From assembly GCA_013112725.1 (NCBI GenBank), contig JABFFZ010000004.1:24147-88146 (forward strand): a DNA stretch of 64,000 bases, in the 5' to 3' direction. Source of the DNA: Chloroflexota bacterium (GTDB lineage Bacteria; Chloroflexota; Anaerolineae; Promineifilales; Promineifilaceae). Below are positions 1-64,000 of this stretch, in pieces. The notes below the pieces were generated by a model. That model searched no databases and was not told the origin of the DNA. It worked only from the letters and a program-made list of their open reading frames with translations. A program made the translations under genes and the position numbers. Position 1 is the stretch's first letter, and each line of letters opens with the position of its first letter.

Positions 1-1111
1 CAGCGGCCGTTTTGCCTGCCAGCACGTCCAGAAAGGTGCTTTTGCCCGCGCCGTTGGGACCAATGACGCCGATGCGGTCGCCGGGATCGAGGTGGAAATC
101 GAGGTTCTGGAAGAGGGTCAGGTCGCTATAGCTTTTGCTCAGGCCGGTGGCTTCCAGCACCCGTTTTCCCAGGCGGCGCGAGGCCAGTGCCAGCGCCACC
201 CGCTCATCCCCCCGGTCATACTGTATTTCGCGCAGCTCTTCGATGCGTTGTTTGCGCGCTTTTTGTTTGGTGCTGCGGGCTTGTGCGCCACGCCGCAGCC
301 ATTCTAATTCACGGCGCAGAATGCCCTGGCGTTTGGTTTCGGCGGTGCTGAGTTGTTCATCGCGGCGGGTGCGTTGTTCCAGGTAACGGCCGTAATTGCC
401 CGGATACAGTACCAACTGCCGCCGGTCTAATTCCACAATCTTGTTCACCACTCGCTCCAAAAAATAGCGGTCATGCGTGACCATTAGCAATGCGCCGGGA
501 CGTTTGAGCAAATAATCCTCCAGCCAGGCAATGGTGTCGGCGTCAATGTGGTTGGTTGGTTCGTCCAGGACGAGCAGGTCGGCGGGGTACAGGAGGGCGT
601 GGGCCAGCGCCACCCGCTTGTACTGCCCGCCGCTGAGGGTGCTTACCGGCGCATCAAATTGGGTGATGCCCAGCCGCGTCAGAATTGTTTTGGCGTCGGC
701 CTCCGCCGCCCAACCGCCCGTGTGATCCATCTGGTGGCTGAGTTCGGCAAAGGCGGCCTGTAAAGCTGGATTGTGCGGGTCGTGGTGCAGCCGGTCGCTG
801 GCGCGGTTAAAGTCGCGCAGCAGGCGCATCTGCGGCGCGTCGCTCTGGAAAATGGCGTCGAGGACGGTTAGGTTGTCGTCCAGGTGTGGCTCCTGCGGCA
901 GATAGTGGACGCGAACATGGCCGGTGCGGCTGATACGGCCGTTGCGCGGCATTTCTAACCCGGCGATCAGACGCAGCAATGTGGTCTTGCCGCTGCCGTT
1001 GCGCCCAATCAGGCCGATGCGGTCGCCCTCGTTGATGAGCAGGTTTACCTTGTCCAGCAGCAGCCGTTCGCTGTAGTAGTGGGAGAGGTTTTCGAGGGTG
1101 AGGAGGTTCAT
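1..1111 (-). CDS. ABC-F family ATPase (two nucleotide-binding domains, no TM); N-terminal ~370 aa, 3' end runs off the left edge
   Basis: Absent from the ORF track because it is open at the window edge. Reverse translation from ATG (1111-1109) gives MNLLTLENLSHYYSERLLLDKVNLLINEGDRIGLIGRNGSGKTTLLRLIA (Walker A). It continues with STLSGGQYKRVALA (ABC signature), a charged linker, then a second Walker A, GVIGPNGAGKSTFLDVLAGK, near position 1. Confidence 0.85.
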   Translation of the reverse strand, partial: MNLLTLENLSHYYSERLLLDKVNLLINEGDRIGLIGRNGSGKTTLLRLIAGLEMPRNGRISRTGHVRVHYLPQEPHLDDNLTVLDAIFQSDAPQMRLLRDFNRASDRLHHDPHNPALQAAFAELSHQMDHTGGWAAEADAKTILTRLGITQFDAPVSTLSGGQYKRVALAHALLYPADLLVLDEPTNHIDADTIAWLEDYLLKRPGALLMVTHDRYFLERVVNKIVELDRRQLVLYPGNYGRYLEQRTRRDEQLSTAETKRQGILRRELEWLRRGAQARSTKQKARKQRIEELREIQYDRGDERVALALASRRLGKRVLEATGLSKSYSDLTLFQNLDFHLDPGDRIGVIGPNGAGKSTFLDVLAGKTAA

Positions 1112-1117
1112 GGGGGA

Positions 1118-1162
1118 GAATTATGAATTATGAATTATGAATTATGAAGGATGAATTATGAA
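1118..1162. repeat. Tandem heptamer array (GAATTAT x ~6, one GAAGGAT variant)
   Basis: Read directly: gaattat gaattat gaattat gaattat gaaggat gaattat gaaa. It lies between the ABC-F start and the MBL gene stop. The same unit recurs at 45997-46030 and, inverted, at 2061-2088. Confidence 0.9.
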
Positions 1163-1176
1163 AGGGTGGCGCCTTG

Positions 1177-1941
1177 TCACCCCTTCACCTGCTCACCCAA
1201 CTCCAGGCTGTTGCCCGGCGGCAGTACCTGCACCAGCACAGCGGGGGCCAGTTCGGCGGTGCGGTCGGCAAAGGTGATGGGGGGCAGGGTGAGGAAGACG
1301 GGGTTGAGCCAGCTGAAGCCGATGGGGTGGAAGGCGCCCCAATGGATGGGAATAGCGATTTTGGGCTGGATGAGGGCGCAGGCTTTGGCGGCCGTTTCCG
1401 GGTCCATGTGGCCGTCACCCAACGTTGGCCCCCAACCCCAAATGGGCAGCAGGGCGATGTCTGGGTGCAGCGCGGCCATTTCCGGGTAGAGGTCGGTATC
1501 GCCGGCGAAGTAGATGGAAGTGGCACGGCCGTACACCATAAAGCCCACACATGCTGTTCTGGCCCCCATGGGGGTGCGCTGGCTGATGTGGTCGGCAAAC
1601 ACCGCTTTGATGGTCAGGGGGCCAACGGCCGTTTGTTGGCCGACGCTGATCTCTTCGATTTGAGTAAAGCCGTACCTTTTGAGCATGTCGGCCGTGCCGA
1701 TTGGCCCAATGATGCGTGTGTCTCGCCCCAACCTTTTGAGTGAGGGGATGTCCAGGTGGTCGCGGTGGTGGTGGGAGAGCAGGATGGCGTCCAGGGGGGA
1801 CAGGTGGTTGAAGGGGGGGTACGGCCGTCGGCGGCGCAAATGGGCAATGCGATGGCGCAGCAGCGGGTCGGTCAGCAGCCGAACCCCATCCAGTTCAATC
1901 AACACCGTGGCATGGCCGAGGTAGGTAAGGCAGTCTATCAT
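1177..1941 (-). CDS. MBL-fold metallo-hydrolase
   Basis: 254-aa ORF with the HxHxDH zinc motif (LLSHHHRDHLD) and a typical beta-lactamase-fold N-terminus (YLGHATVLIELDGVRLLTDP). Confidence 0.85.
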   Translation of the reverse strand: MIDCLTYLGHATVLIELDGVRLLTDPLLRHRIAHLRRRRPYPPFNHLSPLDAILLSHHHRDHLDIPSLKRLGRDTRIIGPIGTADMLKRYGFTQIEEISVGQQTAVGPLTIKAVFADHISQRTPMGARTACVGFMVYGRATSIYFAGDTDLYPEMAALHPDIALLPIWGWGPTLGDGHMDPETAAKACALIQPKIAIPIHWGAFHPIGFSWLNPVFLTLPPITFADRTAELAPAVLVQVLPPGNSLELGEQVKG

Positions 1942-1959
1942 ATCGGGATTATACTGATG

Positions 1960-2013: not shown

Positions 2014-2060
2014 ACGGCCGTTACCCCCGTCCCCCACCATACGCTATAATCCCCGCCCAT

Positions 2061-15375: not shown

Positions 15376-16454
15376 CAAGGGGGGTAAGCGATGCGGTCGG
15401 GGGGCCAAACGGCCGTATGCCAGTCTAGATATTCCACGATATGCGCTGCCCAATAATCCTCATTATGGCCGCCGGGGTTGATGGTGGTCTGGTGGGTGAT
15501 GCCCGCCTCGGTGAGCAGCCGGTCTAGCTCCTCTTGCCCCCGCCACAAAAAATCCTCTTCACCCCAATCCAGCCAGATGCGCAGCTGGCTCAGGTCAGCG
15601 TCGTTGTAGTTTGCCAACGGGTTGTAGGGGGCCGGGTCGGTTTTGAGGCGCAGGGAACTGCTGTGCCCGGCCACGGCCGTGAACAATGCGCTATGCCGGA
15701 ACGCCACCATCAACGCCCAATAGCCCCCCCGCGAAATCCCGCCAATGCTGCGCCCGGTCGCATCGCCCCAGGCGCAGTAGTTGGCTTCGACAAAGGGGAG
15801 CAGTTCTTCCACAATGACCGCTTCCAGACTGTATGGCCCGCCAGACAGGTTGTTGCCCAGCGGGTTGGCGGCGGGCATGATAGCAATGAACGGGGGGTAA
15901 CGGCCGTCCCCAATCCCCCCATCGGCATGCCAGGCCAGCCCCAGGTTGAGCCACTGGTCGTCCCCCTGAATGGAGCCGGGCAGCAGGTAGAGGACGGGGT
16001 AGGTACGGCCGTCGTGCCCATAACAGGGCGGTAGGTAGGCATGATAACTGCGCCAGGGGCCGGCGACCCGGCTGGGTAACTGGCTGCGGAAAAACAGCCC
16101 CTCGCCGTCACAAGGCACGGCAGCAGGCGGCGCGTCCAGATAAGGGGCCGTTACCGTCAGCGGGAAAGTGGGCTGAATACGCGGTGTGGGCGAGGGGGTG
16201 GGGGTGAAGGTGGGAGTAGCGGTGGGGATAATGGATGTCTGTGTACTGGTGGGGCGGGGCGTCAAGGTGGCCGGGGGCACGGCCGTGAACCGGGGTTTGT
16301 AGCTGGCAAAGGGCGTCATGGTTGGCAGGGAAATAGGGGCGGCGTCAACAGGTACGGCCGTGCCGCCGCCACACCCCACCAGCCACCAAAGCAGGCTTGC
16401 CCACACCACCATCCACTTAAGCAGAGAACCAGCATTAAGGGATGTAATAAACAT
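15369..16454 (-). CDS. Secreted lipoprotein esterase (putative esterase / esterase D-like alpha/beta hydrolase)
   Basis: Lipobox LVGCGG, a Pro/Thr-rich linker, and a catalytic region with IGGISRGGYWAL (GxSxG-like) and a C-terminal GGHN. The start overlaps the end of the upstream M23 gene by 20 nt. Confidence 0.7.
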   Translation of the reverse strand: MFITSLNAGSLLKWMVVWASLLWWLVGCGGGTAVPVDAAPISLPTMTPFASYKPRFTAVPPATLTPRPTSTQTSIIPTATPTFTPTPSPTPRIQPTFPLTVTAPYLDAPPAAVPCDGEGLFFRSQLPSRVAGPWRSYHAYLPPCYGHDGRTYPVLYLLPGSIQGDDQWLNLGLAWHADGGIGDGRYPPFIAIMPAANPLGNNLSGGPYSLEAVIVEELLPFVEANYCAWGDATGRSIGGISRGGYWALMVAFRHSALFTAVAGHSSSLRLKTDPAPYNPLANYNDADLSQLRIWLDWGEEDFLWRGQEELDRLLTEAGITHQTTINPGGHNEDYWAAHIVEYLDWHTAVWPPDRIAYPPCS

Positions 16455-18918
16455 TTACGGCCACCCAGTCTAGCGAAAAGTCCCGCATCGTTGAACTGGC
16501 AACGTTTACGATCCGGACGCGAAAATTCGCAGAAGAAAAGCTGCCGGGAATCCAGATGGTACCCCACTTATCGGTAGGCCCGCCCAAAATGTAGCTCTGT
16601 TCTGTGGTGACCAAAAAAATCGTTTCTTTAGGCGCTGTCCAGGTTGAGCCGCCATCCCGTGACAACAGGACGCACATATAAGGCGTGCCAGAAGTATTAT
16701 CTACTTTCGCGTCCAGCCTGACCTCAATACCAGTGATGGTGGCCCCGCTTGGAATAGAGAAGCCGCTAAAATTGTAATACCGGTGGCGATCTTTTGTCGT
16801 ATCTACACAGGAAGCGACTGTGGAGGTACCACTGTCATTATCAATGGCATATCCACCTATACCACCTCCATCGGCATAGGCCCCCGTAGGATTGACATCA
16901 AAGCCATTACCATCGCCGGTATTCTCAGCAAAATTGGCCGAGGGGCTTTTGAATCCGGTATTGGTCGGCGTGGTATACCAGATTTGCAGTTTGGCGGCCT
17001 TAACGATCCCTTCCCGCTCAATTGCAAACACCCGGCGATGGTTATTTGGTGGAATCCCTGGCTGCGGCTGAACAATAATTGTCAGCGCATTACCACTCTG
17101 CCAGGCCGACTGATTCACAATTTCCTGGATAATGTTTTTCAGATTAGGACTGTATCTTTTTTGATGCACAACCCAATTATCTGTGGCCGGGACATTCCAT
17201 AGCACGGTCGCTTGAGTCAAAGGGCGATTGTCTGGTCGGATGTTGTTATCAAAGGTACTGGTGTTAGCCGACAACTCCCCTCGAAACTGAATATTAACAG
17301 TTTGAGAATAGGGGCCATCTACGGTGAATTCAATTTGTGCTTTAGTGATGACTGCTCCAGGTGGAATTGCTACGTTTGTAAATCTGAAACCACTAACAAC
17401 ATTTGCTCCATCAGGGCAGTGACCCAGATACACTTCGTTCCATGCAGTGCCATAGCGGCTCTCTGTGGTGGAACAGGGAGTAGGATTAACACCAGGGTGA
17501 AGAGCAGCGTTATAGCCAGCATCATCGCTGTTTTGAGTGACGGGGATGGTCATTTGGGGCGTTGGGCTTGGCGTGACAGTGGCCGTGGAAGTTGGGGTAG
17601 GAGTGACGGCTGGGCCGCCAACACGCGCAAACTGGACGGCGTCGGCCGCAATCAAATGAGAGGAATCATCGGCAATGGTTATATTACGCATCAGGATATA
17701 TTCACTACCGGATCCACCCATATTAAAGAAATGCCGCCCAATATAGACCCAATGATCGGGATGATCACTGTTAGGATAAGCGGCCTGCACCACAATAGCG
17801 GTGTGGGTTTGTCCGTTGTGGTAAATTTGGTATTCTGCGCTCAGTGTACTCGGATAAAGAGTGCCCGGAATATGAACGTAAACATCATAATAACCGGGAG
17901 TTGTATAGCCATTTGGCGTAATTTGCCATTTTGCATAACACGCGCTGCCAAAACCACCACCAATAGTATCTGTCGTGATGGTGTAATCGAAACTGCCATT
18001 GATACCGCCGTCATTACTTTCCGCCATGCAGCCGCTGGGGAGGGTGCTGTATTCACTGTCGCTGTCATCAATGAGGCGTATAGCTACCGGTGCGGCCGGT
18101 TCAATGATGGTAGGGCCATCGGGATATTGGGCCGGGTTAGCCACCCTGGCGGGATACTGAAGCCAGAGATCGTAACTGGTTGCCCCCGCAGGCGTGGGTG
18201 TTCCAGGTGTTGGAGTAGGTGTACCAGGCATGGTAGTTACAGTCGGTTGCATGTAAACAGCCCATGGATCTGGAAAAGTGCCAATCCAGCCGTAAGGATT
18301 GACCGGTTTGCCGTTAATACGAACCTCAATATGCAAATGAGCGCCGCATAAAGGGTTTTCGTAAACCGGGGGACAATCTCCAAGAACACTGCCCGTATTG
18401 CCGCTTATGCCGATGATACCCTTACGTCTTGCCGGGTCTACGTCAACCGCATCGCCCGTTTTAACTGTTAAAACGCTCAGATGGCCATACCATACACGGT
18501 AATTGGAATTAGCATCATGAATGATCTGGGCATGTAGGCCATATAATTTGCGGTGGTCGCTTGGTACGGACCAACCTGCTAGAGCAGCTGTACCATTAGC
18601 AGCAGCTAATACGGGTTCGTATTTTAGGTTATAATCAACTCCCAAGTGTTGGTCATAGCCATAATATCCAGAATCATCATTGCTTTCAGAGCCATCGTAG
18701 TGTATGGTTGAGTCGAAAAAATCTTCGCCAAATAACGGATATCTGTGATCAAATACTTTCAATATTATTTTTTCACCATAATAAATCGGTCCTAGAAATG
18801 GCGCTGGTGGTTGGTATGCCTGGACACTGTTTTTATTTGTCACCAAAATTACGCTAACCATCACAATAATGCAGGCTAGACAGTTTGAGATGGTAATAAT
18901 CATTTGATTCTTGCTCAT
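16435..18918 (-). CDS. Secreted multidomain M23 (LytM-type) metallopeptidase with golvesin-like and two further beta-rich domains
   Basis: 827 aa with an N-terminal TM/signal. M23 motifs are HLGVDY and GNTG...HLHIEV. PT linkers follow. The next domain carries AKWQITP..GYYDVYVHIP...AEYQIYHNG...WVYIGRHFF...AADAVQFA, resembling the golvesin C-terminal-like carbohydrate-binding module. The two C-terminal domains have no assignable family. The gene is much lower in GC than its flanks. Confidence 0.8.
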   Translation of the reverse strand: MSKNQMIITISNCLACIIVMVSVILVTNKNSVQAYQPPAPFLGPIYYGEKIILKVFDHRYPLFGEDFFDSTIHYDGSESNDDSGYYGYDQHLGVDYNLKYEPVLAAANGTAALAGWSVPSDHRKLYGLHAQIIHDANSNYRVWYGHLSVLTVKTGDAVDVDPARRKGIIGISGNTGSVLGDCPPVYENPLCGAHLHIEVRINGKPVNPYGWIGTFPDPWAVYMQPTVTTMPGTPTPTPGTPTPAGATSYDLWLQYPARVANPAQYPDGPTIIEPAAPVAIRLIDDSDSEYSTLPSGCMAESNDGGINGSFDYTITTDTIGGGFGSACYAKWQITPNGYTTPGYYDVYVHIPGTLYPSTLSAEYQIYHNGQTHTAIVVQAAYPNSDHPDHWVYIGRHFFNMGGSGSEYILMRNITIADDSSHLIAADAVQFARVGGPAVTPTPTSTATVTPSPTPQMTIPVTQNSDDAGYNAALHPGVNPTPCSTTESRYGTAWNEVYLGHCPDGANVVSGFRFTNVAIPPGAVITKAQIEFTVDGPYSQTVNIQFRGELSANTSTFDNNIRPDNRPLTQATVLWNVPATDNWVVHQKRYSPNLKNIIQEIVNQSAWQSGNALTIIVQPQPGIPPNNHRRVFAIEREGIVKAAKLQIWYTTPTNTGFKSPSANFAENTGDGNGFDVNPTGAYADGGGIGGYAIDNDSGTSTVASCVDTTKDRHRYYNFSGFSIPSGATITGIEVRLDAKVDNTSGTPYMCVLLSRDGGSTWTAPKETIFLVTTEQSYILGGPTDKWGTIWIPGSFSSANFRVRIVNVASSTMRDFSLDWVAVNVYYIP

Positions 18919-18981
18919 ATATCACCTCCATATAATATAGATTAGGTAAGGCTGAAACTGTTATACCTTCCAGAAGGCTGA

Positions 18982-44816: not shown

Positions 44817-44817
44817 C

Positions 44818-45981
44818 TTAAAATGCCTCCTGTTCTCTGAACTGCTTCAGGTTGTAGATCATCACCGGAATGACGGCGATGAGGAGTACAATGGCGATGG
44901 CCGAACCAAAACCGGAATTGCGATTGGTAAAGGACTGCCTGTAAAACTGAGTGGCAATCACGTGTGTGCCAAATTGACCACCGGTCATCACCCAAACCAC
45001 GTCAAAAATCTTGAGGGTAAAGATAACGATGGTTGTCCAAACAGTGATCAGCGTGCCGCGAATATAGGGGAGCATGATGCCAAAAAAGATGCGAAACTCG
45101 CTGGCGCCGTCCATACGGCCGGCCTCAAGTAGTTCTTCAGGGATACCTTTGAGTGCGGCCGAGAAGAGTACCATTGAAAAACCGGTTTGCAGCCAGATGA
45201 CGATCACAATGAGAAAGAGGTTGTTCCAGGGAGCAATATCTACCCACTGCGTCCAGGCTCTGGGCACGCCGCCAGCACTAACAAGGATGGCGTTCAGCAG
45301 GCCAATTTGGGGCTGGCCCGGCGGCCGAAATTCATAAATAAATTTCCAGATGATGCTGGCGCCAACAAAGGAGATGGCCATGGGCAGGAAAATAAGCGAT
45401 TTGGCCAGTTTTTCGTAGGCGCTGCGGTCAGCCAGGACGGCAATGATCAGGCCAAATGCGACCGAGAAGGTGCTGCCAAAGACGATCCACATGATGTTGT
45501 TGCGAAACGCTTCTACCATTACTCTTTCGGTAAAAACAGCTGCATAATTACTCAGTCCCACAAACGAATCACTGGCCAACAGTTCTGGTATCGTTAGTCC
45601 GGCAGGAGGGCCATCCCGATTGAACAGACTGATCCAAAAGGTGCGTAAGGTGGGGATGGCCAGGTACCAGGCCAGGATGGCCATAGCCGGCCCGACAAAA
45701 ACGAATGGTTGCAGACGGGTCGTCCACTGGTCTGGCATGCGTTCGACGATGCCGTTGAATATCCAATACAAAAGGGCGACGCCGCCCACACCCCAGACGA
45801 TGGCGACCAGGGTAATGACTATCCGGGGCGCATCGCTGTCACGCAGAAAGAGAAACCCCAGGTAAAGTATGTAAAAGGCGATGGCTGGAATGGCGATGGC
45901 CAATGCCACACGACCAATGAGAGCCAGTATACGCACCCCCAACGATGGTTGTTTAACTTCTTTTCCGCTCACGTAGTTCAT
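44818..45981 (-). CDS. Carbohydrate ABC transporter permease (MalF-like)
   Basis: Multiple TM helices and the EAA motif EAGRMDGASEFRIFFGIMLP. The gene is immediately upstream (1-nt gap) of the MalG-like gene. Confidence 0.85.
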   Translation of the reverse strand: MNYVSGKEVKQPSLGVRILALIGRVALAIAIPAIAFYILYLGFLFLRDSDAPRIVITLVAIVWGVGGVALLYWIFNGIVERMPDQWTTRLQPFVFVGPAMAILAWYLAIPTLRTFWISLFNRDGPPAGLTIPELLASDSFVGLSNYAAVFTERVMVEAFRNNIMWIVFGSTFSVAFGLIIAVLADRSAYEKLAKSLIFLPMAISFVGASIIWKFIYEFRPPGQPQIGLLNAILVSAGGVPRAWTQWVDIAPWNNLFLIVIVIWLQTGFSMVLFSAALKGIPEELLEAGRMDGASEFRIFFGIMLPYIRGTLITVWTTIVIFTLKIFDVVWVMTGGQFGTHVIATQFYRQSFTNRNSGFGSAIAIVLLIAVIPVMIYNLKQFREQEAF

Positions 45982-45996
45982 GTGCCTTCTCCTCCG

Positions 45997-46030
45997 GAAA
46001 TTATGAATTATGAAGGATGAATTATGAAGG
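45997..46030. repeat. Tandem GAATTAT-type heptamer array (second copy of the 1118-1162 family)
   Basis: gaaattat gaattat gaaggat gaattat gaagg. Confidence 0.85.
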
Positions 46031-46113
46031 TTGTAGCAGGCGTTTTAACGCGGGGCGATAAATTGCCTGCTACAAACTTAGAAGTTCAACTTCTTGGAGA
46101 AGTTGAACTTCTA
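46031..46113. repeat. Two consecutive hairpins in the SBP-permease spacer: TTGTAGCAGGC..GCCTGCTACAA (46031-46075) and TAGAAGTTCAACTTCT tgg AGAAGTTGAACTTCTA (46079-46113)
   Basis: Both inverted repeats have perfect arms. The position after the binding-protein gene is typical of mRNA-stabilising or attenuating structures in sugar ABC operons. Confidence 0.8.
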
Positions 46114-46132
46114 CTCCTAAGATCACAAATGG

Positions 46133-47566
46133 CTATCTGGGCCAGGAAGCATCAATGGCTTTCATGGCCGTATCCAGGTCAATGGAACCGGCCACGTAGC
46201 TAGAGATTTGTTCCCAGAAGGAGCCAGCGCCCACTTCGCCGGGCATCAGGTCAGAGCCGTCGAAACGGAAACTGGTAGCCTGATTGACCAGTTCGGAGAC
46301 GCCCCAATCCAGGTCAGAACCGTACATCTCGCGGGTGGCCGTCTTGTGAGCAGCGATAGCGCCACCACCTTCCATCCAACCGCTGACGGATTGTGGGGTG
46401 GTGAAGTATTCCATGAGCGCCCGGACTTCGGGACGGTCATTGAACATAGCCATCAGGTCACCGGCGACGAGGAAGGGACGGCCGTAAGCGGCATCCACTG
46501 GCGGCAGATAGAAGAAGTCATAATCCACGCCGTATTCCGTGCCCTGCGGGAAGAAGCTGGTGATGAAGTTGGCCTGTTTGTGCAGCCAGCACTGGGGCGG
46601 GTCGGCAAACATGGGGCCGGGGGCATCGCCAAAGAAGGTGGAAACGATAGAGGAACGGCCGCCGAGGACGTAATCGTCATTGAACCACAATTCGCTCCAG
46701 GTCTCGATGGCATTCTTGACTTCAGGGGAATCGAAGGGTAGTTCACCGGCCACCCAGGCATCGTAGTTCTCCAGGGAGGTGGTGCGTAGCATCATCTCTT
46801 CTGTCCAGTCGGTGGCTACCCAGCCGGTAGCTGCGCCAGACTCAATGCCGATGCACCAGGCGGTATCGCCATCGGCAGCAATCTCTTCGGTGAGAGCCAT
46901 CAATTCTTCCCAGGTTTCGGGGATTTCATAACCGGCAGCGTCCCAGGCGGCTTTGGGGTACCAGACCAGGCTCTTGCCGGAGAAGCGGTGCATGACGCCC
47001 ATTTCCTGGCCATCTACGGTGTTAAACTCACGCCAGCCATCATTGTACTGCTGCGAGAGCCATTCATCGGAGATGAATGTAGTCACCGGGATCACATCGC
47101 CGCTGCGGACGAAGTTGGCAAAGAGGCCGGGTTGGGGGAAGTCTACGATGTCGGGAGCATCACCCGCGCCGACGCGGATGGCGATGGAGCCTTCAAACTC
47201 TTTGTTGCCGATGTAGTTGACAGTGATGCCGGTGGCTTCTTCAAACGCTTTCACGGATTCGGAGAATTTCACGCCGTCTACGTCATTGCCTTCAAAAGCG
47301 CCATCAACGGTCACGGTTGTGCCCGCAAATTCACCTTTGATAGCCCGTTCCAGATAACCCCCGGCGGGGTAGTCAAAAGGAACTTCAGGCATTTCCTCAG
47401 CTTGTTCTTCGGCTGTTTCTTGGCCTGTTTGTGGCGCCGTTGTCGCTGCTGCTGGCGGAGCTGTTGCCGGGACGGGGGTGGCTTCTTGTTGCCCACCACA
47501 GGCTACGATAATAAGGGTGAGTATCAGCAAAACGCTCAATACTCTCATGATATGTTGTATTTTCAT
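46133..47566 (-). CDS. Extracellular solute-binding lipoprotein (family 1, sugar ABC transporter)
   Basis: Signal and lipobox (LIIVACGG), a low-complexity linker, then an SBP_bac_1-like body. It is first in the transporter gene row. Confidence 0.85.
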   Translation of the reverse strand: MKIQHIMRVLSVLLILTLIIVACGGQQEATPVPATAPPAAATTAPQTGQETAEEQAEEMPEVPFDYPAGGYLERAIKGEFAGTTVTVDGAFEGNDVDGVKFSESVKAFEEATGITVNYIGNKEFEGSIAIRVGAGDAPDIVDFPQPGLFANFVRSGDVIPVTTFISDEWLSQQYNDGWREFNTVDGQEMGVMHRFSGKSLVWYPKAAWDAAGYEIPETWEELMALTEEIAADGDTAWCIGIESGAATGWVATDWTEEMMLRTTSLENYDAWVAGELPFDSPEVKNAIETWSELWFNDDYVLGGRSSIVSTFFGDAPGPMFADPPQCWLHKQANFITSFFPQGTEYGVDYDFFYLPPVDAAYGRPFLVAGDLMAMFNDRPEVRALMEYFTTPQSVSGWMEGGGAIAAHKTATREMYGSDLDWGVSELVNQATSFRFDGSDLMPGEVGAGSFWEQISSYVAGSIDLDTAMKAIDASWPR

Positions 47567-51062: not shown

Positions 51063-51983
51063 TTAGGACGGGGAGGCGGCGATGAGGGCAACCCAGTCAG
51101 TGATTTGCAGGGTTTTGTGGATGTGGCCGCCGGATGTGGTCACGGCCGTGACTACATCCTCCATTTGCTCTTCAATAATGCCGCTCAAGATGAGATGGCC
51201 GCCCGGTTTGACATAGCTGAGCAAGTTGTCATTTTCCAGCAAACCGACAATGACGGGCGCCAGAATGTTGACGACCACGATGTCCCACCCCTTTTCGGTG
51301 ATGGTATCTAACGTGCCTTTTTGGAAGGTGAGATTGTCCAGGTGATTGAGGGCAGTGTTGCTCACGGCCGTTTGTACTGCCACTTCGTCTACATCCACTC
51401 CCAGCACCCGCGCTGCACCCAGTTTGGCAGCAGCAATCGCCAGAATGCCGGAGCCTGTGCCTAAATCAAAAATAGCATCTCCGGGCTGTACCAGTTCTTC
51501 CAGGGCTTGCAGGCACATTTGCGTGGTAGGGTGCAGGCCTGTGCCAAAGGCCATACCGGGGTCGAGCGTCAGCACCACATCATCCGCTTTTATCTGCGCC
51601 GCAGCATCCGGCGATTCTGCTTCAATCCAACTGGGCTGAACCCAGATGCGCTGCCCAATGCGGAAAGGGTGGTAGTGCGCTTTCCAGGCGTTGGCCCAAT
51701 CTTCTTCGGCCAGCAGGCGAAAGGTAGGGGGGGGAATGGGGTAGAGGCGACCCAAAAAGTAGATGATTTCTTCAATGCGGCGGCGCAAACGGGGGGTATC
51801 TTGGTATTCGGGGATGTAAATTTTCACGGTCACGGCCGTTTCCAGCGCATCCGGGTCCGGCGAAGACATATCCCCCAATTGTTCCAGCACCACGCCGTCC
51901 TGGTAGGCGAACGGCCGTAGCTTTTCCGCCACTGCCTCGGCGCCTTCCCCATCGGTTATCACACTGACTTCGAGCCAATTCAT
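51063..51983 (-). CDS. prmA: Ribosomal protein L11 methyltransferase
   Basis: MNWLEVSV start and the SAM motif DLGTGSGILAIAAAKLGA. It sits directly downstream of dnaJ, as in Firmicutes. The start could also be 51998. The ORF-track start at 52058 would overlap dnaJ. Confidence 0.85.
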   Translation of the reverse strand: MNWLEVSVITDGEGAEAVAEKLRPFAYQDGVVLEQLGDMSSPDPDALETAVTVKIYIPEYQDTPRLRRRIEEIIYFLGRLYPIPPPTFRLLAEEDWANAWKAHYHPFRIGQRIWVQPSWIEAESPDAAAQIKADDVVLTLDPGMAFGTGLHPTTQMCLQALEELVQPGDAIFDLGTGSGILAIAAAKLGAARVLGVDVDEVAVQTAVSNTALNHLDNLTFQKGTLDTITEKGWDIVVVNILAPVIVGLLENDNLLSYVKPGGHLILSGIIEEQMEDVVTAVTTSGGHIHKTLQITDWVALIAASPS

Positions 51984-52035
51984 GCGGTTACCAGACATCC
52001 GAATTTCTTTGAGAAATGGGATGTCTTTTCTGGCG

Positions 52036-53196
52036 TTATACGCCAAAAATATCCCCAAAGGCCTCTTTGAGATTATCCAGGAACCCCTTTTCCGTTTTAG
52101 GGATGACCTCTTTACCCAGCGATTTGGATAGCTCTTTGAACAGCCGTTGCTGTTCTTTGTTCAACTTCTTGGGGATAACCACCTGCACAATCACGTGCAT
52201 GTCGCCGCGACCCATGGCCCGGTTACGGCCGCTGCGATCCAGCCGGGGTACACCCTTGCCGCGCAGCTTAAATACCTTGCCTGGCTGTGTGCCCGCCGGA
52301 ATTTCCAGCATATCTTCCCCGTCCAGCGTGGGTACCATAACTTCATCGCCTAAGGCTGCCTGTGCCACATTGATGTGCAAATCCATGAAAACATCATCGC
52401 CACGCCGCTGGAAATACTCATGCGGTTCCACATGGATAACCACATACAGATTGCCTGGCGGCCCACCGGCTACACCCGGCCCGCCTTCATTGCTCAGCCT
52501 GATTTGGGTATCGTTGTCTACCCCGGCGGGCACCTTGACCTTGAGGGTGCGGGTTTGTATCACCTGTTTCTGCCCACGACACATGCTGCACGGGGTGGGA
52601 ATCAGTTCGCCCGTACCCTGGCAGGTGGGACAGGTCGTGACATTGACAAACTGCCCCAAGATAGATTGCTGTACCCGCCGCACTTCACCGCTGCCGTTAC
52701 AGGTGGTGCAGGCAATGGGGCTGGTGCCTGGCTCTGCACCGCCGCCATGACACTGGGGGCAAATTTCTGGGCGGCGTACTTCAATATCTTTTTCCGCGCC
52801 AAATACAGCCTCTTCAAACGAGATGCGCAGGTCATAGCGTAAATCCGCGCCCCGCCCTGGCCCCCGGCGTCGCCGTCGTCCACCGCCCACATTCGTGCCA
52901 AACAACTCCTCAAAAATATCGGCAAAACCGGTGAAGCCCTCAAAACCGGAGAAACCTGGCCCGGCACCGTTATCTACACCGGCATGACCATACCGATCAT
53001 AAGCTGCCCGCATCTGCTCATCCGACAGCACTTCATAGGCCCGCTGCACTTCTTTGAACCGTTCTTCGGCGTCCGGCTCTTTATTGACATCGGGATGATA
53101 TTGGCGGGCTTTGCTGCGGTACGCCTTTTTGATCTCGTCTTTATTGGCGGCGCGTTCTACGCCCAAAACGTCGTAAAAGTCTCGTTGAGTGGCCAT
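52036..53196 (-). CDS. dnaJ: Molecular chaperone DnaJ
   Basis: J-domain ([31 protein letters not shown]), a G/F region, and four CxxCxGxG zinc-finger repeats. Confidence 0.95.
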
Positions 53197-53207
53197 GCTG
53201 TCTTAAT

Positions 53208-53254
53208 GGAGAGTGGGAGATTGGAGATTGCCCAGCCTCTAATTTCCCACTCTC
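53208..53254. repeat. Hairpin in the dnaK-dnaJ spacer (GGAGAGTGGGAGATT ... AATTTCCCACTCTC) with internal GGAGATT duplication
   Basis: Read directly. The GGAGATT unit is the complement-family of the TCTAATC array at the end of hrcA. Confidence 0.8.
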
Positions 53255-53261
53255 ATGCCTC

Positions 53262-55160
53262 TTAAGAATCGCTAAATTCACCTTCAATCACGTCTTCATC
53301 CCGGCCAGCAGCGCCGTCCGGGCCTGGCTCCGGGCCGCTGTTGGCCGGGCCGCCGGCCTGCTGGTACATGGCGGCGCCGGCTTCATTCATGACGGCCAGG
53401 AGTTGGTCGGCCGTTTCATTCATGGCGGCGGCATCATTACCTGCCAGCGCTGAACGGACGGCATTAATACGATCTTGAATGGCGGCTTTGTTAGCTTCCG
53501 GTATCTTGTCGCCGTTTTCGCTCAGGAATTTTTCGGCGCTGTAAGCGGTGGAATCGGCCTTGTTGTGTGCTTCCACCATTTCTTTACGGCGGGCATCTTC
53601 GGAGGCGTGTTGCTCGGCGTCTTTCACCATGCGTTCAATTTCGGCGTCATTCAGGCCGCTAGAGGGGATGATTTGCATGGCCTGTTTGCGCCCGGTGGCC
53701 TTGTCGGCGGCGCTGACGTTGAGGATGCCATCGGCATTGATGTCAAATGTGACCTCAATTTGGGGCACACCACGCGGTGCGGGTGGCAGCCCATCCAGAA
53801 TGAAGCGGCCCAGGCTCTTGTTGTCGGCGGACATCGGCCGTTCGCCCTGGGTGACGTGAATTTCTACCTGTGTCTGCCCGTCGGCGGCGGTGGAGAAAAT
53901 CTGGCTTTTCTTAGTGGGGATGGTGGTATTCCGCTCGATCAACGGCGTCGCAACGCCGCCTAAAGTTTCGATGCTCAGGGTGAGCGGCGTCACATCTAGC
54001 AGCAGCACGTCCTTGACCTCGCCGCCCAAAACGCCAGCTTGAATGGCGGCGCCAATACCCACGACTTCATCCGGGTTGACCCCTTTGTGCGGCTCACGGC
54101 CGAAATAATTTTTCACCGCTTCTTGAATGGCGGGCATACGGGTCATGCCGCCTACCAATACCACTTGCGTAATCTCGTTGAGAGAAAGGCCGGCGTCTTT
54201 GAGGGCCTGGCGGCACGGTTCAATGGAGCGTTTGATCAAGTCTTCGGAAAGCTGCTCAAATTTGGCGCGGGTGAGGGTGAGGTTGAGGTGTTTGGGGCCA
54301 TTGGCGTCGGCGGTGATGTAGGGCAGGTTGAGTTCTGTCTGCATGGTGGTGGACAGTTCGATTTTGGCTTTTTCGGCCGCTTCGCGCAGTCGTTGTAAGG
54401 ATTGCCGGTCATTGCGCAGGTCAATACCCTCTTCCATTTTGAATTGCTCGGCGGCCCAGTCTATGATTTTCTGGTCAAAGTCGTCGCCACCGAGGAAGGT
54501 GTCGCCGTTGGTAGATTTGACCTCAAAGACGCCGTTGTCCATTTCCAGAATGGAGATGTCGAAGGTACCGCCGCCCAGGTCGTAGACGGCGATGATCTCT
54601 TCTTTGTCGCTGCCCAGGCCGTAGGCCAATGAGGAGGCGGTGGGTTCGTTGACAATGCGCAGCACTTCCAGCCCGGCGATTTTGCCGGCGTCTTTGGTGG
54701 CCTGGCGCTGGCTGTCGTTGAAGTAGGCGGGCACGGTGATGACGGCCTGAGTGACGGGCTGGCCCAGGTAGGCTTCGGCGTCGGTTTTGATCTTTTGCAG
54801 GATCATGGCAGAGATTTCAGGGGGGGAGTATTCGCGTTCGCTCATGACCACGCGGACATCGCCGTTGGGGGCTTTGCGGACTTCGTAAGGCACATATTTG
54901 CGCGCTTTTTCCACGGCGGGGTCGTCATATTTGCGGCCCATGAAGCGTTTGACGGAGAAGATGGTGTTGTGGGGGTTGATGACGGCCTGCCGTTTAGCTA
55001 CCTGGCCGACGAGCCGTTCGCCGGTTTTGGGGTTGATGGCGACGATGGAGGGGAAGAGCCGCCCGCCTTCGGCGCTGGGGATGACGGTGGCTTCACCGCC
55101 TTCCATGACGGCGGCGACGGAGTTTGTGGTACCAAGATCAATTCCTATTATTTTTGCCAT
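53262..55160 (-). CDS. dnaK: Molecular chaperone DnaK (Hsp70)
   Basis: [29 protein letters not shown] and a full-length Hsp70 architecture (632 aa). Confidence 0.97.
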
Positions 55161-55173
55161 GATTTCCTCACTA

Positions 55174-55219
55174 TATTGAGATATTGGGGTATTGGGATAT
55201 TATGTCTAATATCTCAATA
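55174..55219. repeat. Hairpin in the grpE-dnaK spacer (TATTGAGATATT ... AATATCTCAATA) with GTATTGGG repeats in the loop
   Basis: Perfect 12-bp arms read directly. Confidence 0.8.
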
Positions 55220-55236
55220 TCCGGGTATCTTGAATT

Positions 55237-55809
55237 TTATTCAGCAACGGCTACCAGCGACGGCCGTATCACCCGGTCGCCTATTTTGTAACCCTTTTGC
55301 AGTTCACGGCAGATGTCGCCGCTTTTGTATTCGTCTGCCGGTTCCTGGGTAATGGCCTCATGCCAATTGGGGTCAAATGGTTGGCCGACGGCCTCAATGG
55401 GGGTGACATTGAAGTTTTCCAGGATGGTAAACAGTTTGCGCTGCACCAGGTCTATGCCTTCTAGCCAGGCGTTGTCGCGGATGCTGTCTGGCACGGTATT
55501 GAGGGCGCGTTCAAAATCGTCCAGCACCGGCAGTAATTTTTTGATCACATCGGCCGTAGCCATGCTGTATAGTTCGATGCGCTCTTTTTCCATGCGCTTG
55601 CGGGCATTGGCAAATTCGGCCTGGCTACGCAGCCAGCGATCTTTGTAATCGGCGGCTTCGGCCTGGGCGGTGGCCAGTTGCTCTTCGAGGGTGGGGGCGG
55701 CTTCGGCCGTTCCCTCCTCATCGGTTAATTCCTGATTTTCGGCAACGGCCGTGCCGTTCAAGACGGCTTCAGGTGCTTCGTCGGCGATGATCTCATTCCC
55801 TGCCTGCAT
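55237..55809 (-). CDS. grpE: Nucleotide exchange factor GrpE
   Basis: Coiled-coil N-terminus, then RLRAEFENYRKR-like (LRSQAEFANARKRMEKE), and a C-terminal beta-domain (GYKIGDRVIRPSLV). Confidence 0.9.
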   Translation of the reverse strand: MQAGNEIIADEAPEAVLNGTAVAENQELTDEEGTAEAAPTLEEQLATAQAEAADYKDRWLRSQAEFANARKRMEKERIELYSMATADVIKKLLPVLDDFERALNTVPDSIRDNAWLEGIDLVQRKLFTILENFNVTPIEAVGQPFDPNWHEAITQEPADEYKSGDICRELQKGYKIGDRVIRPSLVAVAE

Positions 55810-55843
55810 AAAATCTGTTACCTCGTTCTCTGATATGTGTGGG

Positions 55844-55915
55844 GGATTAGAGATGGGCGCTTTTTAATCTCCAATCTCCAATCTCTAATCTCTAATCTCT
55901 AATCTCTGATCTCTG
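55844..55915. repeat. Heptamer array TCTAATC/TCCAATC x7 with a short inverted 5' arm (GGATTAGAGAT)
   Basis: ggattagagat gggcgcttttt aatctccaatctccaatctctaatctctaatctctaatctctgatctctg. The right end encodes the last residues (EIRD) and the stop of hrcA. Confidence 0.9.
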
Positions 55916-56969
55916 CCAAATTTTCTGCCGTTTCTGAGGTGATAGGTTCTGGGCTGTCTTCTATATAGTATTCGTAAACAAACCCGCTCATCAAATTGGC
56001 TATATAACGGACGGCGGCGACGTTACGGCCGTAAGGCATTCGTGTGGGGCCAATGACCGCCACCGTGCCGCTGAAAGCATCGGCGACGCCGTAGCGGGAG
56101 AGGATGATGGAGCAGTCTTTCAACTCTTCCCAACGCCCCTCGCCGCCTATGACTACCTGCACGCCCGGCTCTTCCGTTTGTGTTTCGGAGAGCATCGAAG
56201 CCAGTAAGGTGCGTTCTTCTAAAAAGCGAACCGCTTGCCGGGTGCGGGCATCTTCAACAATGTTAATCAGTCCATCCCGGTAAATATCGCTAATGGGGCG
56301 GCTGTCGGTACGCTCTAGAATTTCCAGGATCAGAACGGTGATGTCGTGTTCTAGTGAGTCCAGATGGCTCATTCGGCTGCGCACGTCTTCATAGGTGGCA
56401 TTTGTCAGAAGCGTGTTCAGGCGGTCAGCCGTGGCGCTCAACTGTGCCTGCGTGAGCGGTTCGGCTAACGTCAGCATTTGCTGTTTCACTTCGCCGCCAT
56501 ATAAAACCACGATCATGAGTACCAACCGGCCTTGGGTGGAAATGAGCTGGATGTGTTTGAAGCGGTTGATAGACGGCCGTGGCGCGGTGACAAAGCTGGC
56601 GCCCAATGATGTCCGTGCCAGAATGGCTGCTGCCAGCCGCATCCACTGGTCCAGGTCTAGCCGCGCTTGATGAAACTGGTGGCGGATCATTTGTTGTTCA
56701 TCTACCGGCAGATGAAAATCCCCTAACAGCTTTTGCACAAAGTAGCGGAAACCTTGCTCGGTGGGTACACGCCCGGCGGAGGTGTGCCACTGCATGAGGT
56801 AGCCCAATTCTGTCAGGGCCGCAAAATCATTGCGCACGGTGGCAGAACTGACGTTTAGATCAAATTGCTCAACCAAAGTTTTAGAACCGGTGGGTAAGCC
56901 GGTTTCGATGTAGTGGCGAACTACCAGTTCTAATAACTTTTCCTGTCGTTCTGTCAGGTCGTATACCAT
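55899..56969 (-). CDS. hrcA: Heat-inducible transcription repressor HrcA
   Basis: LTERQEKLLELVVRHYIETGLPTGSKTLVEQFDLNVSSATVRNDFAALTELGYL...HTSAGRVPT is the canonical HrcA winged-helix N-terminus. It is the first gene of the hrcA-grpE-dnaK-dnaJ row. Confidence 0.9.
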   Translation of the reverse strand: MVYDLTERQEKLLELVVRHYIETGLPTGSKTLVEQFDLNVSSATVRNDFAALTELGYLMQWHTSAGRVPTEQGFRYFVQKLLGDFHLPVDEQQMIRHQFHQARLDLDQWMRLAAAILARTSLGASFVTAPRPSINRFKHIQLISTQGRLVLMIVVLYGGEVKQQMLTLAEPLTQAQLSATADRLNTLLTNATYEDVRSRMSHLDSLEHDITVLILEILERTDSRPISDIYRDGLINIVEDARTRQAVRFLEERTLLASMLSETQTEEPGVQVVIGGEGRWEELKDCSIILSRYGVADAFSGTVAVIGPTRMPYGRNVAAVRYIANLMSGFVYEYYIEDSPEPITSETAENLAEIRD

Positions 56970-62928: not shown

Positions 62929-62972
62929 TTTTGTAAGTGGGCATTGGCCCAGTTGCCCCATTACCCAATTAC
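62925..62972. repeat. Degenerate GTAATT/CCAATTAC-type repeat hairpin
   Basis: gtaattttgtaagtgggcattggcccagttgccccattacccaattacc. The epimerase stop TAA lies within the first unit. Confidence 0.7.
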
Positions 62973-62997
62973 CATCCTGCAAGCTATCAGCCGCGCT

Positions 62998-63429
62998 ATG
63001 ACCCCACTGAACGAGACGCTCAATGAGCAGACGCGGCTGGCCGGCGTCCGGCTGCTGGTCAACGGCGCGCCGGTAACGGCGGAATGGCTGCCCCTTCATC
63101 CCGGTGATGAGCTGATTGTCACCCTGCAATGGGAGGCTTTGGTGGGAATCCCCCGCGACTATACCATGTTTGTCCATTTGCTAGCGGGCGATGGCGCGCT
63201 GCTGGCGCAGCACGACAGCGCGCCGCTGTGGGGAACCCGCCCCACTACCACCTGGCAGCCGGGGGAAATGCTGCTCGACCGGCATGTGCTTACCCTGCCA
63301 ACGGATGCGCCGCCGATGGCCGTGCGCCTGCTGGCGGGGCTGTATGATTCCCAGACCATTGAACGGCAGCTTTTTGCCAATGGGCAGGATGCGGTTTTGC
63401 TGGCGGTGGGGGCGTTGGACGGCCGTTGA
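62998..63429 (+). CDS. Hypothetical protein resembling the C-terminal outer domain of GT39/ArnT-like glycosyltransferases (stand-alone, no TM)
   Basis: 143 aa from ATG 62998. The pattern PGDELIVTLQWEAL...DYTMFVHLL..DG.L.AQHD..P..G..PTT.W.PGE...D...L..P......Y.L..GLYD recalls, from memory, the C-terminal domain of large membrane glycosyltransferases. No homology search was possible. Confidence 0.35.
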   Translation: MTPLNETLNEQTRLAGVRLLVNGAPVTAEWLPLHPGDELIVTLQWEALVGIPRDYTMFVHLLAGDGALLAQHDSAPLWGTRPTTTWQPGEMLLDRHVLTLPTDAPPMAVRLLAGLYDSQTIERQLFANGQDAVLLAVGALDGR

Positions 63430-63497
63430 CGTAGTGCCAGACCAGAAATGACGTGATATAGTAAGCACATCGAATCGCAATCCACATCTGGGCTGAC

Positions 63498-64000
63498 ATG
63501 ATGAAACGATTACCCCAACCTATTCCCTATCAGGGCAGCAAACGTGGTATAGCCCGGCAAATTTTGGCCCTCTTCCCTGAGCCGGTTGATACGCTGGTTG
63601 AACCCTTTGCCGGTTCGGCAGCCTTGTCTGTGGCCGCCGCCTATCACAAAAAGGCGACCCGATTTTTCCTCAATGATTTAAACAAACCGTTAACCGACCT
63701 GTTGGCGCGCATCATCAACCAGCCACAGCAAATTGCCGATGAGTATGAACGTTTATGGCGGGCACAATTGGGTCAGGAACGGGCGTATTATGATTATGTC
63801 CGGGATGAATTCAACAGAACGCATCGGCCTGATTATTTACTTTACTTACTGGCGCGCTGTGTCAAAGCCTCTGTTCGTTACAATGCTGATGGCGCCTTTA
63901 ATCAAAGCCCCGATAACCGGCGCAAAGGGCGTTTGCCGGAGAGTATGCGCCAGGAAATTTTTAATTTTTCCAGATTGTTGGCCGGACGAACCATCGTTAA
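63498..64000 (+). CDS. D12-class N6-adenine DNA methyltransferase (Dam family), N-terminal ~167 aa; runs off the right edge
   Basis: Absent from the ORF track because it is open-ended. Translation gives MMKRLPQPIPYQGSKRGIARQILALFPEPVDTLVEPFAGSAALSVAAAY...FLNDLN, showing the Y.G.K motif and the SAM-binding motif I (EPFAGSAA). The DPPY motif would lie beyond the window. Confidence 0.75.
   Translation, partial: MMKRLPQPIPYQGSKRGIARQILALFPEPVDTLVEPFAGSAALSVAAAYHKKATRFFLNDLNKPLTDLLARIINQPQQIADEYERLWRAQLGQERAYYDYVRDEFNRTHRPDYLLYLLARCVKASVRYNADGAFNQSPDNRRKGRLPESMRQEIFNFSRLLAGRTIV

Follow-up and report, generated by a model that had tools for sequence, protein, structure and literature searches.

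What keeps a single eight-base palindrome at a density of about one copy every 600 bases in a bacterial genome, in genes and spacers alike? The question is raised by a 64,000-base stretch of DNA (hereafter, the window) from a Chloroflexota bacterium of the Promineifilales/Promineifilaceae lineage, in which the octamer ACGGCCGT occurs in 106 exact copies (1.66 per kb) distributed over positions 1..64000. The window corresponds to bases 656,937-720,936 (reversed) of JABTTU010000001.1, a 4.57-Mb contig of the metagenome-assembled genome (MAG) GCA_015075765.1, and the same genes are present in the near-identical MAG GCA_016860925.1 as well as in several read-archive assemblies. By extrapolation, the whole genome would harbor ~7,600 copies. 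A preliminary description, made from the letters of the window, had estimated ~105 copies and likened the octamer to HIP1 (GCGATCGC), the highly iterated palindrome of cyanobacteria. That count and all nine of its example coordinates are correct, and its estimate of the guanine-plus-cytosine (GC) content, ~58%, has to be lowered to a measured 55.4%.

ACGGCCGT is a HIP-type highly iterated palindrome and neither a mobile repeat nor a by-product of codon or amino-acid usage. The preliminary description knew of no account of this octamer as a HIP-type element, and full-text literature searches for ACGGCCGT as a genomic repeat, or in a Chloroflexota or palindrome context, found none among their top-ranked matches, those in the palindrome context being unrelated operator or primer sequences. 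To our knowledge, and within the searched literature, it is thus an undescribed HIP-type element and the first outside cyanobacteria at such intensity.

Abundance and coding context of the octamer

ACGGCCGT is by far the commonest octamer of the window, the runner-up among palindromic octamers having 6 copies. Dinucleotide-preserving shuffles of the window contain a mean of 1.18 copies and a maximum of 5. Markov models of orders 0, 1, 2, 3, and 4 predict 1.4, 1.4, 2.6, 4.0, and 10.3 copies, respectively, such that the 106 observed copies stand against an expectation of 4-10 at the third and fourth orders; the proposed excess is real, and a count close to expectation is not seen. Codon-shuffled controls give the same answer for the 102 copies in called coding sequences: synonymous-codon shuffling within genes yields 11.5 +/- 3.1 copies (maximum 23), and codon permutation yields 2.1 +/- 1.5. 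Low-order composition as the cause is ruled out by the Markov series together with sister lineages of equal GC content that lack the octamer.

The extent of the unit is well defined. The hexamer CGGCCG occurs 168 times in the window and is flanked by A and T in 106 cases, while no other flank pair is found more than 7 times. Since the bases immediately outside the octamer are nearly uniform in the window genome, the unit is exactly eight bases. One-off variants, previously called frequent, are indeed present but at a modest 4-7 copies each, and most are altered at the two outer positions.

The coding context was established with a gene list assembled from recorded gene calls, Pfam hits, and open reading frames (ORFs). 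Coding sequence holds 104 of the 106 copies, 102 of them in called genes and two (386 and 935, both in phase 1) in a minus-strand ORF of at least 373 codons that runs off the start of the window (2-1120). The only intergenic copies in the window, at 2014..2021 and 39837..39844, are single. All three codon phases are in use (49/40/15), in genes on both strands, so the excess is not confined to one of them, and the phase examples given earlier are correct. Phase 0 (ACG GCC GTn, encoding TAV) accounts for 49 copies; phase 1 (nAC GGC CGT, encoding [DNHY]GR) for 38 copies in called genes plus the two in the edge ORF; and phase 2 (nnA CGG CCG Tnn, encoding xRPx) for 15 copies.

The octamer leaves a footprint in the encoded proteins, as had been claimed for TAV, NGR, DGR, and RP peptides. 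TAV is found 52 times versus 9.4 expected from composition (5.5-fold), while each of the remaining five permutations of these residues has 7-11 occurrences, and DGR is found 16 times versus 4.6 expected. Of the 52 TAV tripeptides, 49 are encoded by the octamer, where codon usage predicts 7.4; the corresponding values are 38 of 38 for [DNHY]GR peptides (1.8 predicted) and 15 of 22 for feasible xRPx peptides (0.2 predicted). An artefact of codon or amino-acid usage is ruled out by these peptide-opportunity tests together with the synonymous shuffle and the codon permutation.

Intergenic DNA appears depleted of the octamer in the window, but this depletion disappears in pooled relatives once GC content is considered. 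Non-coding DNA of the relatives carries 1.53 copies per kb versus 2.08 in coding DNA, despite a GC content 9 points lower, and other GC-rich palindromes fall two- to three-fold in the same non-coding DNA. Occurrence in genes on both strands and in spacers had been read as a constraint on DNA rather than on protein, and phases, strands, non-coding density, and codon shuffles all agree with that reading. A DNA-level constraint that yields a HIP1-like iterated palindrome is therefore supported.

A dispersed repeat of the REP, BIME, or MITE type (repetitive extragenic palindromes, bacterial interspersed mosaic elements, and miniature inverted-repeat transposable elements) is also rejected. The copies are alike at the octamer only, 98% are intragenic, the palindrome does not extend further, and no indels are associated with the sites. 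The minimum free energy of folding is -15.8 versus -15.9 for random flanks with the core inserted, the octamer lies at a hairpin tip in 8 of 106 copies versus 37 of 600 controls, and the bases at positions -k and +k pair just as often as their individual frequencies predict. Taken as one explanation, a compositional, codon-usage, or amino-acid artefact or a REP/MITE-type repeat has in its favor only the high GC content of the motif. It has a practically negligible probability in view of the far lower Markov and codon-shuffle counts, the use of all phases and both strands, the octamer-free sisters of equal GC content, and the in-frame position of copies without excess folding energy or similarity past the octamer in conserved genes.

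Clade distribution, dialects, and turnover of sites

A scan of 185,579 species-representative genomes for three ACGGCCGT copies spaced 180-210 bp apart matched at least 118 loci, representing more than 40 MAGs. Nearly all of the matches listed are Chloroflexota MAGs labelled Ardenticatenaceae, Ca. Promineifilaceae, Ca. Leptofilum, Ca. Leptovillus, Anaerolineae, or Chloroflexota, and the remainder of those listed consists of chance matches in high-GC DNA, of tandem repeats, and of very short contigs assigned to other bins. Metagenome loci anchored on DnaK define the limits of the distribution. Densities of 0.6-1.7 octamers per kb are found in five of six loci with a DnaK identity to the window of 83% or more, and one locus at 80% identity is likewise octamer-rich (0.6-1.7 per kb); a short locus of 4.2 kb (L130, DnaK 83% identical) has none. 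Approximately 70 loci with DnaK 66-80% identical have an octamer density of ~0 at the same GC content. The boundary of octamer presence is sharp, at ~80-83% DnaK identity. In a pooled clade sample, there are 2009 copies per Mb versus 9.9 per Mb in a GC-matched outgroup (~200-fold), the pooled value being biased upward by locus selection; unbiased loci carry 0.7-1.7 per kb. The octamer is specific to one family-level clade comprising Promineifilaceae and MAGs labelled Ardenticatenaceae.

Several observations accompany this survey. The octamer density is 3.9 per kb in two contigs binned as 'uncultured Gammaproteobacteria', L009 (2.8 kb) and L092 (1.5 kb), which are probably mis-binned Promineifilaceae DNA. 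A high-GC sister lineage (DnaK 79-80%; L132, L134, L136, L137, L140, L141, and L143) contains 6-9 copies of GCCGCGGC per 9-19 kb, and CGGCCGGC and GGCCGGCC are in excess in the more distant loci L164, L166, and L174; these excesses may reflect either repeated codons or palindrome biases of a different and weaker kind. Elsewhere, CGTCGTGC occurs 35 times in a Pirellulales contig (L099:1-8000), AGGAGCGG 21 times in a Thiohalobacter contig (L030:1-8000), and AATCCCCC 30 times in a cyanobacterial contig without HIP1 (L234:1-21422).

Genera of the clade differ by symmetric extensions of one or two flanking bases. The window's group has no base preference on either side of the octamer. In the AACGGCCGTT dialect, up to 92-97% of copies have A...T flanks, partly as AAACGGCCGTTT, and in the CACGGCCGTG dialect, C...G flanks are found in 94% of copies.

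The order of the genes for an S41 peptidase and a sugar transferase followed by hrcA, grpE, dnaK, dnaJ, and prmA is kept in relatives at 97%, 90%, and 87% DnaK identity, which permits codon alignments of orthologues with the window as the reference. At nucleotide identities of 84%, 75%, 70%, and 69%, relatives keep 24 of 26, 11 of 14, 8 of 14, and 5 of 14 window sites, respectively (92%, 79%, 57%, and 36%). Over the same alignments, 30%, 12%, 8%, and 9% of all 8-mers are identical, and 38%, 19%, 16%, and 20% are identical when the same amino acids are encoded. Sites at orthologous positions are thus conserved well over background and beyond codon conservation, as anticipated for a HIP-type element. 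Each relative also has private sites, which constitute turnover.

The origin of individual sites can be followed in prmA (51063..51983, minus strand), which contains four copies, and in grpE and hrcA (55237..56969, minus strand), which contain the IRPS and YGR sites. The LRPF site of prmA reflects a synonymous change, the outgroup encoding LRPF by GCGGCCTT, whereas the TAV sites of the same gene reflect amino-acid changes, the outgroups having PGV, ATL, or AAL; across the comparison, outgroup peptides where the clade has TAV are PGV, AAL, ATL, or AAV. At the IRPS site, the clade uses the rare codon ATA and the outgroups ATC or ATT. The YGR site is kept clade-wide, and the outgroups encode YGR as ACGGCCGC or ATGGACGC. 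No indels accompany octamer sites relative to outgroup orthologues in the codon alignments. Point substitutions have created the sites in pre-existing genes and spacers; they are silent wherever that is possible, even at the price of a rare codon, and alter the amino acid where a change is tolerated, and almost all compatible peptides now bear the octamer.

One rival explanation is a purely mutational account, in which a methyltransferase and a mismatch-repair ratchet would create sites without benefit, the 'epiphenomenon' option of Elhai. It predicts that one-off variants concentrate at the outer positions, which they do (3.5 times the outgroup level in the pooled clade), and the density saturates at ~1 site per 0.5-1 kb. 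A functionless by-product is nevertheless quite unlikely: many sites have come at the cost of a replaced amino acid or a rare codon, strong conservation persists when 30% of nucleotides have diverged, the density on mobile elements is higher than that on chromosomes, and the flank skew described below is not predicted.

Flank skew, mobile elements, and candidate mechanisms

Chromosomal copies of the octamer have a G-rich 5' flank and a C-rich 3' flank, on both strands. The symmetrised GC skew is +0.32 at 4-9 bp from the octamer, +0.23 at 10-18 bp, +0.13 at 19-30 bp, ~+0.06 at 31-60 bp, and ~0 beyond ~150 bp. It resides mostly at third codon positions, such that upstream of the octamer, the frequency of G at these positions is 0.39-0.44 (background 0.30) and that of C is ~0.19 (background 0.35), with the reverse downstream. 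The skew at other CGGCCG sites of the clade is +0.04 and that at sites matching 7 of 8 bases is +0.07, while other palindromes, as well as CGGCCG or GGCC in the outgroup, give ~0. The skew is specific to the intact octamer on clade chromosomes. Outgroup positions orthologous to window sites have a skew of +0.02 +/- 0.03, and the skew is therefore derived rather than ancestral, which rules out a pre-existing context. A sense-strand or transcription effect is ruled out by its presence in all three phases and on either gene strand, cytosine deamination on exposed single strands by the fact that G rises while T does not, and a hairpin by pairing, folding energy, and tip position, all of which are at control level. 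Shared and private sites do not differ in skew, in small numbers, giving no sign of growth with site age. Word counts in the flanks reveal an excess of G runs and G/T words (GGGG 2.7-fold, GGTGG 2.9-fold) and no discrete second motif. The stretch 24060..24117 provides an example, with the octamer at 24085-24092 bordered by the G-rich aggggttgggcggcggtgtgggggg on its 5' side and by C-richer sequence on its 3' side.

In the window, 13 gaps between neighboring copies are shorter than 150 bp (26 +/- 3.4 expected) and 41 are 180-360 bp long (21 +/- 4 expected). The deficit of gaps below 50 bp is the only spacing feature that survives in pooled data (64 versus 104 +/- 9 expected in 736 kb of relatives). 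On chromosomes, the octamer and its skewed flanks form a unit of ~60 bp.

Mobile DNA carries the octamer in a different form. The same three-copy pattern with 180-210 bp spacing has 22 matches among IMG/VR contigs, six of which are tandem repeats. Two phage contigs with genes for terminase, portal, major head protein, and protease carry 2.5-2.8 octamers per kb. Each of the two also encodes a predicted DNA methylase (L221:9824-11098 and L223:2887-3822), one a fusion of a ParB-like N-terminal region to an N6_N4_Mtase domain and the other a Dam-like protein, for which no relative was found in the PDB. The highest densities seen, 3.4-4.0 octamers per kb and thus above the chromosomal density, belong to three contigs filed as viral (L210, L225, and L230). 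Their gene content (FtsK/SpoIIIE, ParA, RadC, P22-type antirepressor, SLT or GH25 hydrolase, and SNF2 helicase) makes them look like conjugative or plasmid-type elements. Copies on mobile elements are nearly devoid of skew in their flanks, with values of +0.05 to +0.09 at 4-9 bp, which shows that the skew can be uncoupled from the 8-bp core.

These properties can be compared with those expected if ACGGCCGT were bound by an abundant protein that is nucleoid-associated or processes DNA, e.g., a chromosome organizer, a type II topoisomerase, or a stop or loading site of a translocase, with selection acting on the distribution of sites and neither modification nor biased fixation involved. A chromosome-specific, two-fold symmetric unit of ~60 bp whose neighboring copies avoid each other would suit such a protein. 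The polarity of the skew, with the G-rich strand running toward the site on both sides, is that of a replication terminus or dif site, and symmetry is also a property of published gyrase sites, which have a 4-bp stagger and a central region of ~35 bp. However, the published gyrase motif is degenerate and has no real match to the exact octamer, and exact 8-bp specificity is unlike that of gyrase or of typical nucleoid-associated proteins. The regular 180-360 bp spacing, although significant in the window, is not reproduced in the dnaK loci of seven relatives. Moreover, phages and conjugative-type elements that are denser in the core but lack the flanks are hard to accommodate in chromosome architecture. 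Even with the argument of Xu et al. (2018) for selection on the distribution of HIP1, a binding site of this kind appears unlikely.

The clade has a distinctive pattern of hexamer avoidance. CTGCAG is absent from the window (~18 expected), GGGCCC occurs once (25-40 expected), CCCGGG twice (23-31 expected), and CCGCGG three times (25-44 expected); CGATCG (8-19 expected), GTGCAC, TCGCGA, and GAGCTC have zero copies. This avoidance profile is common to clade relatives and to the phage contigs and those resembling integrative and conjugative elements, which supports the residence of these contigs in clade hosts, and the outgroup lacks it. It suggests a rich, clade-specific history of restriction-modification systems. 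As the sole over-represented palindrome amid the avoidance of 6-bp palindromes, and one that phages accumulate, the octamer is not a restriction target.

The closest known parallel is HIP1, which is over-represented 15- to 300-fold, is conserved beyond codon conservation, and is negatively correlated with expression; selection has been argued to act on its distribution, and its sites show periodicity on a kilobase scale (Xu et al. 2018). HIP1 is tied to CGATCG and GATC methyltransferases, has extensions and variant HIPs in some genomes, and has one-off forms that deviate at outer positions (Elhai 2015). Methylated HIP1 enhances natural transformation 'in a manner reminiscent of a Chi site' (Kamoku & Nielsen preprint). 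HIP1 also correlates phylogenetically with pilus and competence genes and has been proposed as an uptake signal, and one Synechococcus has a GGCC-core HIP variant, CAGGCCTG (Rodriguez-Cruz et al. preprint).

ACGGCCGT and HIP1 are both exact palindromic octamers at ~1 copy per 0.5-1 kb, roughly 100-fold over expectation, and both occur in coding DNA in all frames and in non-coding DNA, having spread by nucleotide substitution. Both are clade-wide with lineage-specific extensions or variants, are conserved at orthologous sites beyond codons, and are depleted in highly conserved or highly expressed genes, and the one-off forms of both are mainly altered at outer positions. The core of each is a classic type II recognition hexamer, CGGCCG here and CGATCG in HIP1. 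The initial likening to HIP1 therefore holds in abundance, use of all frames, substitution origin, clade dialects, and orthologous conservation. However, there are several differences between the two elements. ACGGCCGT belongs to Chloroflexota and GCGATCGC to cyanobacteria; HIP1 is tied to methyltransferases, while ACGGCCGT is not yet linked to one; and enrichment on phage and conjugative-type contigs is documented for ACGGCCGT.

By analogy, ACGGCCGT may be a modification-linked 'self' watermark, in which a two-fold symmetric protein recognizes the duplex octamer and marked DNA is favored, a reading to which we give roughly an even chance. A resident, two-fold symmetric, sequence-specific DNA protein would recognize the duplex octamer and, judging from HIP1, would most likely be a DNA methyltransferase whose target lies within or close to the CGGCCG core. 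The marked site would be read in repair, recombination, or DNA-entry pathways, and marked DNA would be favored, such that new sites would be preferentially fixed and old ones retained on all replicons that persist in the cells. In the chromosomal setting, this transaction would leave or require a symmetric skew of ~30 bp per side, with an excess of G over C in the 5' flank and of C over G in the 3' flank, and the resulting unit of ~60 bp would keep neighboring sites more than ~50 bp apart. The precedent of methylation-dependent DNA entry and recombination supports this mark model for an octamer in a HIP1-like setting (Kamoku & Nielsen; Rodriguez-Cruz et al. preprints).

Several observations weigh against such a watermark. 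No DNA methyltransferase, Vsr-like gene, or other candidate reader is present in the 64-kb window, and a crude regex motif scan for methyltransferases in ~1.2 Mb of clade DNA returned false positives only. Recognition of eight bases, with dialects of 10-12, is long for a typical methyltransferase. In the pooled clade, no one-off variant is depleted, so no strong 'conversion' ratchet is visible, and no clear signature of 5-methylcytosine deamination is found: relative to the outgroup, the C-to-T products ATGGCCGT, ACAGCCGT, and ACGACCGT are raised only 1.4-1.7-fold, about as much as some transversions. The skew is a G/C exchange, which no known methylation-coupled repair pathway predicts, and it is nearly missing from mobile elements. 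HIP1 itself shows no extended skew at 32 sites, a small sample from two HIP1-bearing cyanobacterial contigs fetched through RbcL: the values are +0.04 +/- 0.08 at 4-9 bp, where ACGGCCGT has +0.32, and +0.06 +/- 0.06 at 10-18 bp. Therefore, at least part of the biology of ACGGCCGT departs from the HIP1 model. The skewed flanks and the behavior on mobile DNA are new observations, which may or may not hold for other HIPs.

The Dcm/Vsr system provides a further comparison. It drives an over-representation of CCWGG in enterobacteria, which is slight in E. coli and is accompanied there by a depletion of the deamination products. A methyltransferase combined with short-patch repair can thus shape oligonucleotide frequencies, and the patch length, tens of nucleotides, resembles the skew footprint. 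In the case of ACGGCCGT, however, the transition products are not depleted, and the skew is a G/C exchange rather than C-to-T.

Uptake signals constitute a second comparison. The uptake signal sequences (USS) of Pasteurellaceae and the DNA uptake sequences (DUS) of Neisseriaceae are asymmetric motifs, often paired in terminators, that are hyper-abundant, have genus dialects and flank preferences, leave a peptide footprint, and are fairly evenly spaced. A signal of this kind would be bound unmodified by a surface or translocation protein, preferential uptake and homologous recombination would spread ACGGCCGT by molecular drive, and the dialects would keep exchange within genera. ACGGCCGT resembles USS and DUS in its hyper-abundance, with a fold-enrichment and density near theirs, its proteome footprint, its genus-level dialects, its weaker extended flanks, and its fairly even spacing, and recently acquired genes are depleted of it. 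In contrast to USS and DUS, it is a perfect palindrome, and its two intergenic copies in the window are single, with no terminator-like pairs in spacers. We know of no competence system or uptake receptor in the Promineifilaceae clade. Phage genomes carry ACGGCCGT as well, and drive through uptake would hardly be expected to reach virulent phages, although the 2.5-2.8 copies per kb of the phage contigs count weakly, as these contigs may be virulent or temperate. If the flanks belonged to the signal, mobile elements would need it in full, yet their copies lack the skew. Even though HIP1 itself has now been proposed as an uptake signal (Rodriguez-Cruz et al.; Kamoku & Nielsen preprints), we regard this explanation of ACGGCCGT as rather improbable.

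The G-rich flanks also invite comparison with Chi. A palindromic, Chi-like signal would stop a helicase-nuclease of the AddAB/RecBCD type at ACGGCCGT and load RecA on the G-rich 5' flank, such that site-rich DNA would be spared and would recombine, while DNA free of sites would be destroyed. As with Chi, the motif is on the scale of an octamer and would mark resident DNA, and the neighboring sequence is G- and GT-rich. The 5' flank of both strands, in which GGTGG is enriched, would form the 3' tail. Enrichment on mobile elements is expected of a protective self-mark. Known Chi sites, in contrast, are asymmetric, co-oriented with replication, and few-fold enriched, and they do not reshape proteins. 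ACGGCCGT is palindromic, which makes orientation impossible, is about 100-fold enriched, and alters protein sequences, and its copies on mobile elements lack the G-rich flank. The comparison of HIP1 itself to a Chi site (Kamoku & Nielsen preprint) notwithstanding, a Chi-like function of ACGGCCGT is very unlikely.

A more specific proposal, which is possible but doubtful, takes the octamer and its derived, skewed flanks together as a ~60-bp chromosomal element, thousands of copies of which would be sites of a recurrent, two-fold symmetric DNA transaction. Short-patch synthesis that starts from a nick is one conceivable transaction, and a motor protein that is arrested or loaded convergently would be another. 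If true, the element would represent a previously unrecognized system of genome maintenance or self-recognition, which phages and conjugative elements mimic by copying the 8-bp core only.

Features along the window and wider meaning

The octamers are unevenly distributed along the window. The densest stretch (22937..26160) has 16 copies in 3.2 kb and spans three minus-strand genes, which encode an RNase_H_2-like protein, a MobA-like NTP transferase, and a HemN-like radical SAM protein. The closest pair, 18 bp apart (34463..34488, plus strand), lies in an M36 peptidase gene with both copies in phase 0 (TAV). The longest octamer-free stretch (41015..46477, minus strand) comprises 5.5 kb with an alpha-amylase and two ABC permeases, and a further 3.3 kb without octamers covers dnaJ and dnaK (51919..55259, minus strand). 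The octamer-free genes of the window (dnaK, dnaJ, the amylase, and the ABC permeases) encode no compatible peptides; DnaJ and DnaK contain no TAV, [DNHY]GR, or RP[FLSYCW]. Clade-wide, dnaK and dnaJ are likewise motif-poor (0.35 and 0.27 octamers per kb, respectively), and prmA carries 4.3 per kb.

A motif-poor block on the minus strand (16435..22806) has 3 copies in 6.4 kb and harbors an M23 peptidase gene and three beta-propeller genes of the PD40/WD40 type. Its GC content at third codon positions is 0.40-0.45 versus ~0.65 elsewhere, and the block is probably recently acquired DNA. An antitoxin-toxin pair of the YefM/YoeB type (6860-7367) also has zero octamers, and a Uma2-family endonuclease gene lies nearby (3661-4254).

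Some 30 years after HIP1 became known, there is still debate about what it does, with proposals that include repair directed by methylation, a role in chromosome architecture, and a signal for DNA uptake or recombination. A second, independent HIP, from another phylum and with another sequence and core, turns a single case into a comparative problem. The sharp boundary, the dialects, the enrichment on mobile elements, and the separable skew each offer a concrete test. Gene families common to HIP-bearing Promineifilaceae and HIP1-bearing cyanobacteria but absent from HIP-free relatives are candidates for the machinery. For the Promineifilaceae, abundant bulking filaments of wastewater plants, the octamer is a strong binning marker that can be used to flag mis-binned contigs, to assign phages and mobile elements to their hosts, and to spot recently acquired genes. 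Beyond this family, comparison of ACGGCCGT with HIP1 could reveal the purpose of highly iterated palindromes.

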